Part shown: piece by piece, positions 42,419 through 50,740 of the stretch
How the letters are laid out: every line of letters begins with the position of its first letter
How positions within the stretch are numbered: the stretch's first letter is position 1
The notes under the pieces: generated by a model
What the model was told of the DNA's origin: nothing
Databases searched by the model: none
The model's input: the letters and a program-made list of their open reading frames with translations, nothing else
Made by a program: the position numbers and the translations under genes
Source of the DNA: Candidatus Poribacteria bacterium
Lineage (GTDB): Bacteria; Poribacteria; WGA-4E; WGA-3G
Direction: 5' to 3'
Assembly (NCBI GenBank): GCA_963663765.2
Contig: CAXXUA010000004.1
Coordinates: forward strand, 288,001 to 352,000
DNA length: 64,000 nucleotides

Positions 42419-44287
42419 TTACCCTTTAACACCCATTGCTTCAAGTTGTGCTATCTGTTCTATCCATGATTCACGTATTTCATGTGAGTATTCAATTGGC
42501 AATAGGGATTTACGTGTACAATTCAGGAATGCTTGTAGCGTCTGATAACGTCGGATCGGACCGATATTGGGTAGGATTCTATCGGAGATAACGTCGATTA
42601 TCTCATTAACAGACAACTCACCTTCTCGGCTTTTGACTGCTTCAAGGTCAGCGCGTAGAGAAGCAAAACTTGCAGCTGAATATCCTTCAGTATGTGAAAG
42701 GATGTGTTTGAAATCTTCATCTGATATTTTACTGCCAAATACATTACTAATCGTCCAGCGTAAAAAGGTTTCTCGGTCATCTCCTGTAGGATCAAGGACA
42801 GGAATGACAATGTCACCGACTCTTCCCTCTCTTCGAAGATCCGGTGAAAGGTTATAGATACGAGCAGTCATCAGTAGCCATGTGATTTTTCCGCGTAATT
42901 GTGGGTCAGACATCATCGCTTGTATTTTTCCTGTAAGTCTACGTTCAGTCGCGTGTGCGTCCCTTCCTACCTCGCCGAACTGCGTATCCGCTTCATCTAC
43001 AAAAATCAGGACATTCACGAGTGCCATCAGCAAACGGCTAAGACGTTCAAATATTACATCTGTTTGTCCAAACCACATGCTGCGGATATTCTTAAGCACT
43101 AACACAGGGATATCAAGTTCTCCTGCTAACCCTTCAAAGATAAAAGTCTTGCCACTGCCGATAGGTCCACAAACACTTAATCCTGAGATTGAATCTTTGC
43201 CAGTTGATGTGATACGCGGAATGATTTGCGTTCTTAGGAATTCAACAAGTTTTGTGTTACCGATAATATCTTTCAGTGAATGTGCAGGTTTCTTGAACTC
43301 AACAACGTCCTCACCTAACTGTGCCTGTATAAACTCTGAGACCTTCTCTATAACATTATCCGGTTGAAGTTTTTCACCAGAATAACACGCGGAAACGAGT
43401 AGTTGCCGTAATGCTTGAATGGACAGACCAGCAGTTAACACCGCCAGCTGCGACTGACTACCCCAAAGATTTAATTCCTTATCTTTTGGTTTCTGAGTTC
43501 GGTTGAACCATGAGATAAAATGTCTGCGTGTATCGACTAATGGAGATTGTACCTCCACATCAACGACTTGCGGAAGTCGCATAATTCGTGAATTAATCAA
43601 ACTTTTTGATTCAGCTATGAAGACGACAGTGTCAGTAGCCTTCATGAAATCGGAATCTGATATCCAATCTTGAACAATACTGATTCTGTGCCTATCGGCT
43701 AAATTGAGACTTCTGATTTCACCTTCGGGCAGCAGCATGTCTGTGGCTTCAATGAGTATGAGGAGTTTTTCTTTTAAGAACTTTTTACCTTGAACATCAG
43801 AAGAACGAGAAATCATACAGAATTGACGAAGCAATTCCAATGCTAATGTTGGACTCCCGATAGCATCGTTGAGATATTGCTCAAACAATCTATCAGATGT
43901 ATCTGAGGAATTCGTTTTTTTGCTGGTGCTCAATCTTGGTTCTTTTGGAAGTGCATATAGACTGGAGATTTTTTTCTGTGAAGGGTCGGTGTTACCGCGC
44001 CATGAATTGAAAGCTTTATTGAGTTTATTCCTGTCTCTTTCATGCAGAATACGTAGGGGACCATTGAGTTCATATACTATAAGGATAAAACCGGGAATAT
44101 CCCAACTTTGTGTAAGAAATGGGACAAGGGGTATGTAATCCTCAACATTTTCTTCTTCAGCAAAAAAGAGGTCATGGATATTTCCATGAAGGACGATACT
44201 ACGTGATGTACCTGAGTTAATTAGCAAGCCAGCATCAGTTCTGAATTTGTAAGAAGGTTCCTTAATCGCGATCGGTTTTTCCTCCAT
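42419..44287 (-). CDS. AAA+ ATPase: degenerate N-terminal AAA-like domain plus active classical-clade C-terminal domain
   Basis: Walker A GPIGSGKT, pore loop SMWFGQT, Walker B IFVDEAD, SRH LSPDLRREGR; N-half IVLHGNIHDLF ... LILIEATD. Confidence 0.9.
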   Translation of the reverse strand: MEEKPIAIKEPSYKFRTDAGLLINSGTSRSIVLHGNIHDLFFAEEENVEDYIPLVPFLTQSWDIPGFILIVYELNGPLRILHERDRNKLNKAFNSWRGNTDPSQKKISSLYALPKEPRLSTSKKTNSSDTSDRLFEQYLNDAIGSPTLALELLRQFCMISRSSDVQGKKFLKEKLLILIEATDMLLPEGEIRSLNLADRHRISIVQDWISDSDFMKATDTVVFIAESKSLINSRIMRLPQVVDVEVQSPLVDTRRHFISWFNRTQKPKDKELNLWGSQSQLAVLTAGLSIQALRQLLVSACYSGEKLQPDNVIEKVSEFIQAQLGEDVVEFKKPAHSLKDIIGNTKLVEFLRTQIIPRITSTGKDSISGLSVCGPIGSGKTFIFEGLAGELDIPVLVLKNIRSMWFGQTDVIFERLSRLLMALVNVLIFVDEADTQFGEVGRDAHATERRLTGKIQAMMSDPQLRGKITWLLMTARIYNLSPDLRREGRVGDIVIPVLDPTGDDRETFLRWTISNVFGSKISDEDFKHILSHTEGYSAASFASLRADLEAVKSREGELSVNEIIDVISDRILPNIGPIRRYQTLQAFLNCTRKSLLPIEYSHEIRESWIEQIAQLEAMGVKG

Positions 44288-44299
44288 TTTCTGTAGACA

Positions 44300-46105
44300 T
44301 CAACCTGCTTGTGCTAACTTTTTCCATCTTGGGAGAAAACCTTCCGTTAAAAACATGTCAAGTTTCCAGATGTTACTTTGCGGTTCTTTTTCAAAAAATG
44401 TCCCCATTGCTAATACAAGGGCATCTTTGAAACCACACTTAGTTTTTACTTTTGACAAGGATTCATAAGTTTGGAGGAAAGCAGTATGAATCCGCAAAAA
44501 GTTTAAGGCAGCAAAACTAAAAGCGTTGAGTCGTAAACAATTATCTTCCGTTTTCTCCCAGTACCAATCCAGTTGATAAAAACGTTCAAGCCGTTCTTTA
44601 CAGATGTGTACTGCTTTTACAAGGAGATGATTTAAACCTTTATGTTCCTTTTCGCTATCAGGTATATCAAATTTCTCAAGAATCTCAGTGTGAATCCTAT
44701 GTTTAGCTTCATCAGAATCCACCCAAGTTTGAAATGCCTCGGACGCGCGTACGAAACAGTTTCTGAGATCCTCAAGCGTCAAATCAAGTTTGCTGGGAAA
44801 ATCTTTGAGCAACGAGGAACTTGGCATAAGATGTGCCTGTTCGGGGAATAATTGTAAGAATTTGTATTCAACAACATCCGCTAACATTTCCGCGAGAATG
44901 GGTGTAAATGCAATGATAGAACGTTCATATAACTCTGCATCAATAAACTCTGTTAGTTTTTCAGTATCAAGTTGAATTTCATCTGTATCAGTCTTTACAA
45001 AAGCATCAGCAAATGACAATTGTTCTCCTAAAACAGAAGCAGATTCGGAGAAAGATAAGGGGCGATCAAAGAGGGATAATTCGGTGTATAGATTCTCAAA
45101 ATCAAGTAGACTTTCCTGCCATTGATGACCCCATGTATCATGTATTAGGTATTTGTCAAGTTCCTCTAATGGAAGCACTCCGATCATTCGCGTGAGTGTT
45201 GTTGTTACAAGATCTAATGATAGACCGGTATCTTCAGCGATTTGCTTTCGTAAAGTGATGTCCAAATCTTCAGCATTAAATGTACCGAATACAGGGAAAT
45301 GAGCAAATGGTTCTACCTGCCAAATTTTTCGGAGAAACTGTGCATAACTTATTTTCTTTTTTGAACTTTGTTTCTCATTTTTGTCAACACTTGTATTTAA
45401 CTTTTGTTTTCTATCTTTGTCAGCGATACCTTCCTTAACCGCAGAAGGCAAACAGAAATAGAGAGCAGAACAGGTCTTTATTAACTTCACTTCACCAACA
45501 TCAAATGGTGCTCCTGGATACAGACATTGGAAGAAAGATAGAATATCATCATCCAGATTAGGATTGTCGGACACCAACTTATATCGTGTTTGTAGACTGT
45601 CCATAATCTGATGTCGATGTCTTAAGGGAGCAGTTCGTATAGAAAGTTTGTGTTTAAGTTTCTCTGCTGATTCTGGTGTAATTTGGAATATTTGTTGTAA
45701 TTGTGTCTTGATGTACTCACATTCGGAAATGTTTGATGGTGCATCTGGTGTAAAGAGTGTGAAGATTTTGGAACCAGCAGTATCAAGATTTTCTATGCTT
45801 GGGTGGTTGACGATTTCCGGATACTGTTCCAGTGATAACCATATTCCCTCAACAAAAGCTTCATCAATTATAGTCCTAATGGAATTAGTTGTTTCTGATT
45901 CTTTAGATGATTGTAATACTTTGTTAGTTTCATTTATCAGGGAATTATGGATTTCATAGAATAATTCAGGGGTTTCAATAGAAACAGGAGAGTTCTTTTT
46001 TTGTTTCTTGATTTGATGTACGTGGTTTTCAAAATCTTTCAATAGATTTAAGACGTTCTCCCAAGAAACGGGTGTTTTATCTTGATGCCACGTGTTAATT
46101 GTCAT
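44300..46105 (-). CDS. Hypothetical protein with a possible M49-like metal site
   Basis: HDTWGH and downstream AEMLAD; RBS ggag before ATG 46105; 12-bp gap to the AAA gene. Confidence 0.7.
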   Translation of the reverse strand: MTINTWHQDKTPVSWENVLNLLKDFENHVHQIKKQKKNSPVSIETPELFYEIHNSLINETNKVLQSSKESETTNSIRTIIDEAFVEGIWLSLEQYPEIVNHPSIENLDTAGSKIFTLFTPDAPSNISECEYIKTQLQQIFQITPESAEKLKHKLSIRTAPLRHRHQIMDSLQTRYKLVSDNPNLDDDILSFFQCLYPGAPFDVGEVKLIKTCSALYFCLPSAVKEGIADKDRKQKLNTSVDKNEKQSSKKKISYAQFLRKIWQVEPFAHFPVFGTFNAEDLDITLRKQIAEDTGLSLDLVTTTLTRMIGVLPLEELDKYLIHDTWGHQWQESLLDFENLYTELSLFDRPLSFSESASVLGEQLSFADAFVKTDTDEIQLDTEKLTEFIDAELYERSIIAFTPILAEMLADVVEYKFLQLFPEQAHLMPSSSLLKDFPSKLDLTLEDLRNCFVRASEAFQTWVDSDEAKHRIHTEILEKFDIPDSEKEHKGLNHLLVKAVHICKERLERFYQLDWYWEKTEDNCLRLNAFSFAALNFLRIHTAFLQTYESLSKVKTKCGFKDALVLAMGTFFEKEPQSNIWKLDMFLTEGFLPRWKKLAQAG

Positions 46106-49877: not shown

Positions 49878-49951
49878 TGTTTCTACTCCAGAAATTTAGT
49901 TTTGTAAAAAATTTATACCTGAATATAGACAATAGAAAGTATATATAAGCA

Positions 49952-50740
49952 TCAAAGCAAATCACTTGCTTGGTTTATTTCCTTTTCAGGATCTGGTATA
50001 AATTCCCTTATCTGTTCATCAACCTTTTTTGCAAAATCGAGACTCTCATCCAGTTCAGTGCGTAGACGACCAAGTTCTGTCTCATTGCTGTCGGGACTGA
50101 TTGTTAGGACACGCGCATACAGATGCGAAAGCTGAACTATGGTCTGTTGAACATCCGCAATCTGTTGTTCTCTGTGTTGTCGCAGTACTCGTCTGACAGT
50201 TTCCAATTGAGAATCTCTTGATTTTTCTTGCATTTTCAGTGTGTCTTTTAGACACTGCACTGCTTGTGTAAACAGGTCAGTTACTTTATCAGTTATTTCC
50301 GCACTCACCAAAAGGGGTAGATTTGCCATCCAACTTGCTTCTCGAACTTCCTCTTGAAAGGACTTATGCAATGAACGAAGTTCATCCAACATCTGTTCTG
50401 TTCTTCTATCACCATCTCTTGTCAACTGTTGATGTAGCGTGTTTAGTTCTTCTTCCTGTTTTTGTTGTGCTTCGTGTAATATTTCTTCATGAACCTGTTT
50501 AGCAATATCCTCTGTACCAGTAGTCCACTTTGTAATCAAGGCACCGATGGGAATCCCAATACCGACGACAGCACTACCGAATAAGTAGAGAATCTGGGGT
50601 TCTAAGTTAAAAACCCATGACGCAAATACCCCCATTGCCCCCGCTGCAAATGGGTAAATGGTGTAAGGATTGCTAATAAGATGAAGTAAGTATTTCTTAC
50701 GAAACAAATTCCTATCAATCAATGTCTTCACCAAAAACAT
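49952..50740 (-). CDS. Hypothetical 2-TM protein with a C-terminal coiled-coil domain
   Basis: Two hydrophobic segments (YPFAAGAMGVFASWVF; ILYLFGSAVVGIGIPIGALI) followed by Q/E/L heptads. Confidence 0.75.
   Translation of the reverse strand: MFLVKTLIDRNLFRKKYLLHLISNPYTIYPFAAGAMGVFASWVFNLEPQILYLFGSAVVGIGIPIGALITKWTTGTEDIAKQVHEEILHEAQQKQEEELNTLHQQLTRDGDRRTEQMLDELRSLHKSFQEEVREASWMANLPLLVSAEITDKVTDLFTQAVQCLKDTLKMQEKSRDSQLETVRRVLRQHREQQIADVQQTIVQLSHLYARVLTISPDSNETELGRLRTELDESLDFAKKVDEQIREFIPDPEKEINQASDLL

Follow-up and report, generated by a model that had tools for sequence, protein, structure and literature searches.

What is the function of a PspA-type gene cluster that carries a gene for an AAA+ motor, in a member of Poribacteria that lives as a sponge symbiont? 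Within the window, a stretch of 64,000 nucleotides, positions 42,419 to 50,740 had been given a sequence-only reading as a candidate bacterial ESCRT-III/Vps4-like system composed of a membrane adaptor, two polymer subunits, a recycling ATPase and a processing enzyme. All genes named in that reading are present in the ORF list of the window and all lie on the minus strand, from TM2CC, the first gene of the cluster, through PspA-B, PspA-A, a propeller gene and U605 to a tandem AAA+ ATPase; the ORF list also contains a WD40 gene on the same strand (40223-42142).

The PspA-A ORF as called spans 48129-49004 (minus strand, 291 aa). Because its homologues begin at MANGFTR, the start was placed at 48965, and thus the protein, encoded by 48129-48965, is probably 278 aa long. 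It scores 35.2-35.4 bits against the Pfam family PspA_IM30 (PF04012), only 1.3-1.5 bits above the curated cut-off of 33.9. Of the 120 listed homologues, 118 have a precomputed match to the same family, which also matches five of ten diverse ATPase-linked PspA-like proteins. A search of PDB retrieved Vipp1/PspA at E 0.003; a profile of close homologues brought no gain, with Vipp1 at E 0.03, beneath the coiled-coil noise. Comparison with canonical PspA of Poribacteria by hhalign gave a probability of 72.8% (E 3.2e-5), a second comparison 13.6% (E 0.002), and comparison with one single canonical PspA 4.7%. These matches point, with modest strength, to a divergent member of the PspA/IM30 family and hence of the ESCRT-III superfamily, as had been proposed. 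Unlike the Snf7 proteins of ESCRT-III, it would belong to the PspA branch.

The ATPase (42419-44287, minus strand, 622 aa) matches PF00004 at residues 372-492, and its structure model is confident, with a two-module fold. The second module, D2 (approximately residues 345-600), is intact and carries Walker A GPIGSGKT, Walker B IFVDEAD, arginine fingers and the aromatic pore loop SMWFG noted earlier. Its residues G374, G379, K380, E432, A433 and others are invariant in 60 family members. The first module, D1 (approximately residues 14-340), is degenerate: it has GNIHDLF at the Walker A position and the GKT is missing. The domain search and the model revealed no MIT domain or other separate substrate-recognition domain, and no recognisable substrate-binding N-domain. 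The protein is thus predicted to be a type II tandem ATPase of the classical clade with dead D1 and active D2, nearest in build to Drg1, Rix7, NVL and p97, although D2 resembles many AAA families equally.

This is not the architecture of Vps4, and the earlier description of the motor as Vps4-like had to be rejected on that level: the motor has two modules with the first one dead, and the MIT domain is lacking. It also differs from the archaeal CdvC (25.9 bits in the NCBIfam model, cut-off 650). From p97/Cdc48, Drg1 (AFG2), Rix7/NVL and Pex1/Pex6 it is distinguished by the lack of an N-terminal double-psi-barrel or other N-domain, by D1 without a P-loop, and by identity of 13-18%; it scores 36.5 bits in the NCBIfam CDC48 model, where the cut-off is 802.65.

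Co-occurrence of the ATPase with PspA in other genomes had been set beforehand as the test that could refute the proposed system. Of 80 loci from Poribacteria species, 77 have a PspA-like gene upstream of the ATPase gene and on its strand, and the three misses are contig ends. The ORF maps of the 80 loci place the pair side by side in 51 (median gap 111 bp) and show it separated by U605 in 15 and by other genes in 8. Five maps lack a full PspA ORF (four contig ends and one artefact of the ORF filter), and in one the ATPase ORF is unlabelled. Among 60 relatives searched at E 1e-25, the ATPase was found in 47 and the PspA-like protein in 42. In three seemingly ATPase-only genomes of one genus (g4), the PspA-like gene was then found in the same cassette at E 1e-17 to 1e-40; in the last two the contigs stop just upstream. 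In total, the pair is complete in 45 relatives and wholly absent from 13; no relative shows a single member, and for the other two the contig breaks off.

The linkage extends to a distant clade of ATPases that share only some 30% identity with the protein of the window: a PspA-like gene is present in five of seven metagenome loci with sufficient upstream DNA, and the HMM of Poribacteria PspA-A recognises these proteins at E 1e-12 to 3e-7. Taken together, the genomic data support the view that PspA and the tandem ATPase form a conserved, co-inherited pair, the constant core of a cassette.

TM2CC (49952-50740, minus strand, 262 aa) is a candidate membrane anchor or partner of PspA. Its hydropathy profile has a strong segment at residues 49-71 and a weaker one at approximately 27-47, followed by a helical cytoplasmic part of about 190 aa. 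In 20 of the 80 Poribacteria loci the PspA genes are immediately preceded by an orthologue of TM2CC; distant ones among these share 48-51% identity. An HMM built from the orthologues also detects, in a distant metagenome operon, the gene that immediately precedes the PspA-like one (L107:2758-3723, E 4.7e-8). Thus the claim that the two-TM protein belongs with the system holds, and by its gene neighbourhood TM2CC is an old cassette member. A Pfam scan, 14 family members included, gave no family apart from coiled-coil noise, and hhalign against the PspA-like family gave a probability of 0.1%. The family PF25587 (Rv2743c) is indicated by an Atlas feature score of 0.87 only, with 12% of the members of that cluster carrying it, and is absent from the Pfam scan of the 14 members.

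The best explanation of these observations, and one that we consider somewhat probable, is that the window carries a reduced cassette whose ATPase remodels or recycles PspA polymers. PspA-A would polymerise on the inner face of the cytoplasmic membrane, where TM2CC may anchor or nucleate the polymer. The ATPase hexamer would grip PspA subunits, probably by an exposed tail beyond a flexible linker, and ATP hydrolysis would power their translocation through the pore of D2; the polymer would thereby be remodelled or dismantled and its subunits recycled. The binding, and a direction of action towards disassembly rather than assembly, are what we infer. The ATPase would thus do on PspA the job that Vps4 does on ESCRT-III, with a differently built motor. 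The resemblance to ESCRT-III/Vps4 of eukaryotes and to archaeal CdvB/CdvC is that a polymer-forming protein of the superfamily is encoded beside a classical AAA+ unfoldase with an aromatic pore loop.

A second resemblance to ESCRT-III is a short conserved C-terminal motif past a flexible linker. In PspA-A, a variable acidic linker is followed by the tail ...DEFDxLIFGA...SELP[LVI], and the terminus reads [DEN][ST][EK]LP[LVI] in 75 of the 77 full-length copies. We take this motif to resemble the MIM motif, which recruits Vps4. The motif is not universal, as three PspA-like proteins of genus g4 end in EERKLGE; five distant PspA-like proteins keep the variable linker and have the terminus xRP[KT][IL]. 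The remaining PspAs of the same genome, which do not adjoin a tandem ATPase, have C-termini different from the PspA-A tail. A connection of the system with internal compartments, suggested earlier, appears weak on the available text of Jahn et al.

The same tail bears on another possibility, unlikely but to be taken seriously, that PspA-A is a regulator or adaptor that holds the ATPase inactive or sites it at stressed membrane, while the motor unfolds or extracts other proteins. As described in the available text of PMC7619361, PspA of E. coli is known to bind and inhibit PspF, itself an AAA+ protein, rather than to be its substrate. The lack of a recognisable substrate-binding N-domain agrees with such a role, and strict pairing suits a regulator and its enzyme as much as a substrate and its enzyme. 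However, a conserved terminal tail after a variable linker resembles a threaded substrate or a docking peptide, and PspA is the sole conserved neighbour in the 51 loci with direct adjacency, hence no other client is encoded nearby. Moreover, whereas PspF in that source is a sigma-54 activator, the AAA+ protein of the window is of the unfoldase type, a classical-clade protein with pore loops and without a DNA-binding part. The cluster does share with E. coli PspA-PspF, and with the PspBC, LiaIH and PspM/PspN partner sets, the combination of PspA with a membrane partner and an AAA+ protein. On the other hand, and in line with the sequence-only reading, which had seen no PspB, PspC or PspF at the locus, a whole-genome search yielded no PspC and no PspB above the cut-off, and none of the nine matches to sigma-54 activators in the genome falls within the window.

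A fuller form of the cassette occurs in the distant metagenome clade and in some Poribacteria. Its order, present in loci L075, L077, L083, L104 and L107, is VWA, NMT1-like+OmpA, TM2CC-like, PspA-like, binding protein, permease, ABC ATPase, tandem AAA. The available text of Ravi et al., mSystems 2024 (PMC11237479) describes PspA adjoining an 'inactive-Classical-AAA+Classical-AAA' protein, with longer versions that add a solute-binding+OmpA protein, a permease, an ABC ATPase and a membrane-anchored helical protein, and suggests ATP-dependent membrane remodelling as the role of such pairs. The same parts are seen here, including one polypeptide with two AAA modules of which the N-terminal one is inactive; identity with the family of the accessions in that paper is deduced from architecture. 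The membrane protein is termed there a divergent Snf7, for which the hhalign and Pfam comparisons of TM2CC gave no support. Relative to these neighbourhoods, the importer, VWA and OmpA genes are missing from the window and an orphan 601-aa gene takes their position; additional PspA copies without the tail and the propeller insertion are further differences. The best explanation is that the window contains a copy of a conserved bacterial cassette in reduced form, modified in this lineage.

The fuller cassettes provide a point against the proposed mechanism, as they place the ATPase beside the ABC importer genes and far from PspA, and thus another client is possible. The motor could serve the envelope machine encoded there, with its VWA protein, OmpA-anchored binding proteins and ABC importer, in assembly, extraction or quality control of membrane parts; PspA would merely protect the membrane alongside, and the Poribacteria pair would be a leftover. 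Indeed, in several fuller cassettes there is no gap between the ABC ATPase gene and the tandem AAA gene, or the two overlap. We consider this rather improbable, since the importer, VWA and OmpA genes are absent from at least 71 of the 80 Poribacteria loci, where PspA and the ATPase are still together, and since none of the 60 relatives retains one member of the pair alone.

The orphan gene U605 (44300-46117, minus strand) encodes 605 aa as called and 601 aa if counted from residue 5, where its homologues start. The protein is mostly helical and soluble, and the stop codon lies 12 nt ahead of the ATPase start. No match was found in Pfam, NCBIfam, PADLOC or PHROGs, nor for its confident structure model among solved structures; these searches lend no support to the suggested processing enzyme. 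As U605 occupies the slot held by the ABC importer genes in fuller cassettes, we propose that it is a Poribacteria-only accessory that took their place.

PspA-B (49236-49877, minus strand, 213 aa) is indeed a paralog of PspA-A (42% identity over 208 residues, E 6e-55), with an insert of about 30 aa behind the N-terminal helix. However, it hardly qualifies as the second polymer subunit for which it had been taken. It is tail-less and cut off by a TGA stop, through which the genome search reads, and homologous sequence continues beyond the stop up to a MITE. Its orthologues (229-260 aa) all lack the C-terminal tail in the alignment, and many counterparts in relatives contain in-frame stops. PspA-B is evidently a truncated, decaying duplicate of the PspA gene.

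The propeller gene (46490-47569, minus strand, 359 aa; PQQ_2/BamB-like) was correctly recognised as such (Pfam PQQ_2, E 6.9e-29), but it is not a member of the system: no homologue of it stands between the PspA and ATPase genes in any of the 80 related loci. Its frame is open further upstream through a signal-peptide-like stretch without ATG, GTG or TTG. By synteny it is an unrelated insertion outside the conserved cassette. The gaps between the genes do contain MITE-like elements, as had been noted, namely a dispersed repeat of about 125 nt at 46294-46418, with further copies in the cluster at 42277-42393, 49079-49203 and 50940-51096, and 481 blastn matches in the whole genome, 173 of them of at least 100 nt. 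DNA runs X6 and X7 have a contig that passes directly from 46290 to 46419, without the copy 46294-46418, and in X7 49076 is also joined to 49204, at the copy 49079-49203. An RNA library contains short contigs from TM2CC, PspA-B, PspA-A, the propeller gene and the U605/ATPase junction, which indicate presence only.

Mobile repeats around the locus, transposase genes inserted in related loci and fast changes in paralog number among them might suggest an anti-phage defence or other conflict system whose AAA+ ATPase and coiled-coil proteins sense or abort infection. This is very improbable: PADLOC gives weak coiled-coil and P-loop noise (best E 1.7e-5, to LmuB; models of 611-1035 positions) and nothing for U605, and the pair is vertically conserved in a fixed place across the phylum, unlike typical defence islands. 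That the genes are merely neighbours without a functional link, as the MITE-filled gaps and the inserted propeller gene could imply, is hardly credible given the same-strand linkage, the joint presence or joint absence of both genes in 58 of 60 relatives (the other two at contig ends) and the persistence of the linkage in an ATPase clade at 30% identity.

The pairing itself is not new, being already predicted from genome comparisons in the available text of Ravi et al. 2024 (PMC11237479). If recycling of PspA polymers by the tandem ATPase proves true, a dedicated AAA+ motor could explain how bacteria recycle these polymers.

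The ORF map gives seven co-oriented ORFs on the minus strand between 40.2 and 50.7 kb of the window, with the same coordinates as in the sequence-only reading. The genome is 6.35 Mb long and 97.8% complete (the window is C4:288001-352000), and the named close homologues of the proteins come from Candidatus Poribacteria. Family scans assign PF04012 (PspA_IM30) to the 278-aa protein PspA-A (48965-48129, minus strand), PQQ_2 of Pfam to a 359-aa propeller protein (46490-47569, minus strand), PF00004 to residues 372-492 of a 622-aa ATPase (42419-44287, minus strand), and a WD40 match to the last gene of the cluster (40223-42142, minus strand). 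The other three products have no match in the Pfam and NCBIfam scans: the 262-aa helical protein with two transmembrane segments, TM2CC (49952-50740), the 213-aa PspA-B (49236-49877) and the 605-aa orphan U605 (44300-46117). PADLOC and PHROGs scans of the cluster yield nothing meaningful, and no Rfam family is found in the window. Promoter-like sites (30, with 27.6 expected) and terminator-like sites (7, with 5.6 expected) are at chance level. In agreement with the earlier remark that no PspB, PspC or PspF is visible here, a profile search of the genome finds no PspC and no PspB over the cut-off, and none of its nine sigma-54 activators lies in the window.

The flanking WD40 protein (639 aa) has an N-terminal hydrophobic segment; matches to it of 22-37% identity occur at varying places in 27 of 80 related loci. 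On the other side, a 163-aa membrane-anchored coiled-coil ORF (51585-52076, plus strand) is present in one of the 80, and in the closest relatives the place upstream is usually taken by an amidohydrolase-like gene (52173-53822; 13/80). Conservation of the cluster does not extend to these flanking genes.

These loci are the best 80 of 532 relatives retrieved from species-representative genomes with a six-row ATPase alignment; 77 are from Poribacteria and three from an "uncultured bacterium". A PspA-A orthologue is detected by tblastn upstream of the ATPase gene and on the same strand in 77 of the 80, and the three misses are contigs ending just upstream. Thus the co-occurrence of the ATPase with the PspA-like gene, which the sequence-only reading required, holds in Poribacteria. 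According to the ORF maps, the two genes are directly adjacent in 51 of the 80 loci, with a median gap of 111 bp, and in 15 they are separated by U605. Eight loci have other genes in this position: ABC importer genes in four, DUF481 in two, a TnpB-type transposase in one and a spurious small ORF in one. Five loci have no full PspA ORF, namely four contig ends and L028, where tblastn finds the gene; in one more the ATPase ORF is unlabelled.

The same pattern is seen when whole genomes are counted. Among 60 relatives, the ATPase is found in 47 and the PspA-A subfamily, at E 1e-25, in 42. Three genomes of a relative genus (g4) seemed at first to be ATPase-only, but their cassette includes a PspA-like gene of greater divergence, some 5.6 kb upstream, and the two remaining cases are contigs of 4.4 and 4.8 kb that end upstream. 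In total, both genes occur in 45 genomes, neither in 13 (three genera), one alone in none, and two are contig-end cases; the 60 relatives are not independent, and at the genus level this amounts to five genera with both genes and three with neither. The locus is an insertion hot spot, yet the order of PspA and ATPase survives. Transposase genes (IS605 OrfB/TnpB-type, DDE_3) lie in or beside the operon in other Poribacteria, at L064:8748-9905, L017:3644-4756 and L013:5923-7110.

The assignment of PspA-A to the PspA/IM30 family had been made by pattern. The protein matches PF04012 with 35.2 and 35.4 bits at a cut-off of 33.9, a small margin of 1.3-1.5 bits, over profile positions 3-205 of 220. 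Precomputed annotations give PF04012 for 118 of the 120 PspA-A homologues listed; among ten diverse ATPase-linked PspA-like relatives only five have the match at E 0.01. The best full-length colinear PDB matches of the single sequence are cyanobacterial Vipp1/PspA (E 0.003), and a profile of close homologues brings no gain (Vipp1, E 0.03). Seven canonical PspAs of Poribacteria (180-205 Pfam bits) served as hhalign targets. Against these, the alignment of diverse ATPase-linked proteins reaches a probability of 72.8% (E 3.2e-5, helices a3-a5) and that of close homologues one of 13.6% (E 0.002, 190 colinear columns); a single canonical PspA as target gives 4.7%. The N-terminal stretch MANGFTRFFRAIW is conserved and, by eye, of amphipathic character. 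PspA-A is thus a probable member of the PspA/IM30 family, on evidence that is consistent but modest, and the PspA-like call is retained at that strength.

The genome encodes other PspAs. At G000:C5:809822-812210 there are two tandem proteins, each with an N-terminal multi-TM part and a PspA domain of 77 Pfam bits, and at G000:C4:802562-803275 a 237-aa PspA-like gene precedes genes for an ABC ATPase and a large permease (ABC-2-type transporter). Stand-alone canonical PspAs of 180-205 bits occur in other families of Poribacteria, and the genus of the window seems to be without them.

The C-terminus of PspA-A is conserved. The motif [DEN][ST][EK]LP[LVI] forms the end of 75 of the 77 full-length PspA-A-type proteins. 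It is preceded by a variable, acidic, low-complexity linker, and the linker by the block DEFDxLIFGA. In five distant metagenome PspA-like proteins the linker is retained and the last residues are xRP[KT][IL](S); the tail proline is invariant in all ten sequences of the alignment. The g4 proteins end in EERKLGE, without the proline. Among the shorter PspA copies only one of 28 has the SELPL end, and the tandem pair of contig C5 and the 237-aa copy of C4 have other ends and no such ATPase adjoining. A short conserved end on a flexible linker would be in keeping with a signal by which the motor docks on PspA or threads it.

The ATPase consists of two AAA modules, D1 and D2. Its AF2 model is confident (pLDDT 93.1, pTM 0.89), and the top Foldseek matches are the tandem AAA proteins p97/Cdc48, Rix7, NVL and Drg1, at about 1e-18 over some 650 columns. 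Since tandem AAA ATPases head this ranking, the protein is a type II classical AAA+ ATPase without an extra N-domain: in the model D1 starts near residue 14 and aligns to D1 of Drg1, Rix7 and p97. The nucleotide-binding motifs of D2 are intact (Walker A GPIGSGKT; Walker B IFVDEAD, with E432), as are its pore loop SMWFG (W405/F406) and its arginine-finger region; across 60 family members of 25-52% identity they show little or no variation. In D1, GN[IV]HDxF replaces the P-loop GxxGxGKT throughout the family, and there is no DE Walker B; a D1-only profile matches the AAA lid regions of archaeal Vps4 (E 2.9e-5). The family is large, with 4128 proteins at E <=1e-3 and 233 at E <=1e-30 in a representative library.

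The ATPase shares with Vps4/CdvC the classical-clade AAA fold, the aromatic pore loop and an adjoining gene of the ESCRT-III superfamily. However, Vps4/CdvC has an N-terminal MIT domain and a single AAA module, whereas the ATPase has two modules and no MIT domain, PF00004 being its only Pfam match, and it scores 25.9 bits with NCBIfam cell_div_CdvC, whose cut-off is 650. The ATPase is therefore not a Vps4. Nor is it a Cdc48/p97, which has an N-terminal substrate/adaptor domain and an active D1; here the N-domain is absent and D1 degenerate, and NCBIfam CDC48 gives 36.5 bits with a cut-off of 802.65. It matches the "inactive-Classical-AAA+Classical-AAA" of Ravi et al. 2024 (PMC11237479), in the available text of which the same two-module architecture has an N-terminal module without nucleotide-binding motifs. 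The likeness to the examples named in that text (AEY64320.1, CKH37208.1, the neighbour of OGG56892.1) is one of architecture strings.

A remote tandem-AAA paralog of 617 aa is encoded at G000:C6:303493-305346 (21% identity over the full length). It has GPSGNGN, without the lysine, in place of the D2 Walker A. Matches of this type occur in most of the 60 relatives, and in the genome of the window the gene adjoins DNA polymerase I and an RNA-binding protein. It was considered as a second partner of PspA and rejected, no PspA gene being beside it.

All 80 loci are of the Poribacteria kind, and thus the reach beyond the phylum rests on metagenome contigs. A metagenome scan with an ATPase cluster about 30% identical to the ATPase of the window gives 26 loci. 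In these distant loci, an NMT1-type binding protein, a BPD_transp_1 permease and an ABC ATPase are encoded directly upstream of the AAA gene. A 267-283-aa protein at the operon head is matched by the Poribacteria PspA-A HMM (E 1e-12 to 3e-7) in five of the seven loci with enough upstream DNA (L098, L103, L104, L106 and L107, the negative ones being L089 and L100). Genes for a VWA protein and for an NMT1-like+OmpA protein follow still further upstream. L075, L077 and L083, Poribacteria loci at a greater distance, have the same order, which is VWA, OmpA protein, TM2CC, PspA, binding protein, sometimes DUF481, permease, ABC ATPase, tandem AAA; in L082, two Band_7/SPFH genes are added between TM2CC and PspA. 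The order in L080 is NMT1+OmpA, VWA, OmpA, TM2CC, PspA, U605, AAA, and U605 therefore occupies the very position that the importer genes have in other loci. The optional partners mentioned in the available text of Ravi et al. (binding-protein+OmpA, permease, ABC ATPase, membrane helical protein) all occur among the related loci. We read the loci as three architectures, the full cassette, the U605 type (20 loci and the window) and the minimal pair, and the window itself as a reduced derivative of the cassette, of which only PspA and the ATPase are never lost.

U605 has 197 homologues; among the 120 matches listed all are at least 60% identical, and the named ones are from Poribacteria. The protein is predicted to be soluble, and its model is confident (pLDDT 84.7, pTM 0.86) and has no convincing match in the PDB. 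Protein Atlas, PADLOC and PHROGs give nothing usable. Within the otherwise helical protein there are invariant polar blocks, HDTWGHQWQE (326-335, with H326, D327, H331 and E335), ExYER (395-399) and AExxADxVE (409-417), which would suit a binding or catalytic site. U605 is a lineage-specific orphan and the only really unexplained part of the module.

Orthologues of TM2CC accompany PspA in 20 of the 80 loci, down to 48% identity, and in L107, a distant metagenome operon, a TM2CC HMM picks out the immediate upstream neighbour of the PspA gene (E 4.7e-8). For these reasons TM2CC is taken to be an old member of the cassette. No homology of its helical part to Snf7 or PspA is detected at the sequence level: hhalign with the PspA-like family gives a probability of 0.1%, and a Pfam scan at E 1 finds neither family in any of 14 TM2CC-family members. 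A distant likeness of fold may exist. In the Protein Atlas it falls into Planctomycetota-rich clusters, with a 0.87 lead to Rv2743c that Pfam does not confirm.

PspA-B and PspA-A are paralogs (42% identity, E 6e-55). Relatives have from zero to three extra PspA copies, all without a5, linker and tail and with a variable insert after a0, and many of these contain in-frame stops. In the window PspA-B stops at a TGA; the homologous reading runs some nine codons further, up to a repeat. We read PspA-B as a probable decaying duplicate; alternatively, it may be a tail-less co-polymer subunit. The propeller gene is an insertion; none of the 80 loci has it in this position. Its frame (46490-48049, minus strand) is open for about 60 codons upstream of the first ATG, GTG or TTG and contains a signal-peptide-like stretch without a canonical start. 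Either the gene uses an unusual start codon or it has lost its start.

The gaps between the genes had been described as MITE-filled, and indeed a dispersed repeat of about 125 nt is present in them, with 481 blastn hits in the genome. Copies in the window are at 46294-46418, 49079-49203, 42277-42393 and 50940-51096, and at 2479-2603, 27187-27282 and 29409-29506. Contigs of close strains in two public DNA runs cleanly skip the copies at 46294-46418 and 49079-49203, which are therefore recent insertions. Contigs from RNA libraries match TM2CC (50133-50521), the end of PspA-B (49200-49394), PspA-A (48241-48575, with 0-1 mismatches), the propeller gene (46887-47037) and the junction of U605 and the ATPase gene (44258-44408). 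They cover 12 of 30 bins and indicate presence in the library, neither operon structure nor expression level; the bins without contigs carry no weight. The two RNA-library entries have identical figures and thus are probably one data set filed twice.

Taken together, the sequence comparisons indicate that PspA with a predicted dedicated tandem AAA+ motor is a real conserved module. Of the ESCRT-III/Vps4-like system proposed by the sequence-only reading, the conserved PspA/AAA+ module stands, and the motor falls outside the Vps4 family. The module plausibly works like ESCRT-III/Vps4 without Vps4-family membership. The tie to internal compartments is weak, as Jahn et al. 2016, in the text available, describe no membrane-bound compartments in Poribacteria. 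As a prediction the pairing itself has been published before, and the window is a further case of the predicted kind: the accessible parts of Ravi et al. report PspA with the two-AAA protein "in various bacterial clades", in longer operons, together with the idea of ATP-dependent remodelling. Among the papers listed in literature searches on PspA with AAA+ or ESCRT-III, no experimental study of a PspA and tandem AAA pair was found, and the search on PspA in Poribacteria gave no paper.

One possibility, which we hold as tentative and rather unlikely, is that the tail-tagged PspA and the tandem AAA+ motor are an independently arisen bacterial working equivalent of ESCRT-III/Vps4. The SELP[LVI] end would then serve to recruit the motor or to start threading, with the dead D1 ring as the receptor of that end, and nucleation at the membrane would fall to the 2-TM protein. 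A lineage-specific 601-aa protein of new fold, in place of the ABC importer, would have rewired the system in sponge-symbiotic Poribacteria and provided a new input or output.

According to the portion of a 2025 review (PMC7619361) available to us, an ATPase of the Vps4-like type "appears absent in bacteria", and the polymerisation of PspA must be under some other control. A PspA subfamily that is always co-inherited with a dedicated unfoldase offers an answer that can be tested directly, for some bacteria at least. With only two genes, the minimal form, seen in 51 of the 80 loci, is a simple system to reconstitute, and the conserved tail of PspA-A is a concrete handle for mutagenesis. A small puzzle of its own is U605, whose confident model matches no solved structure.
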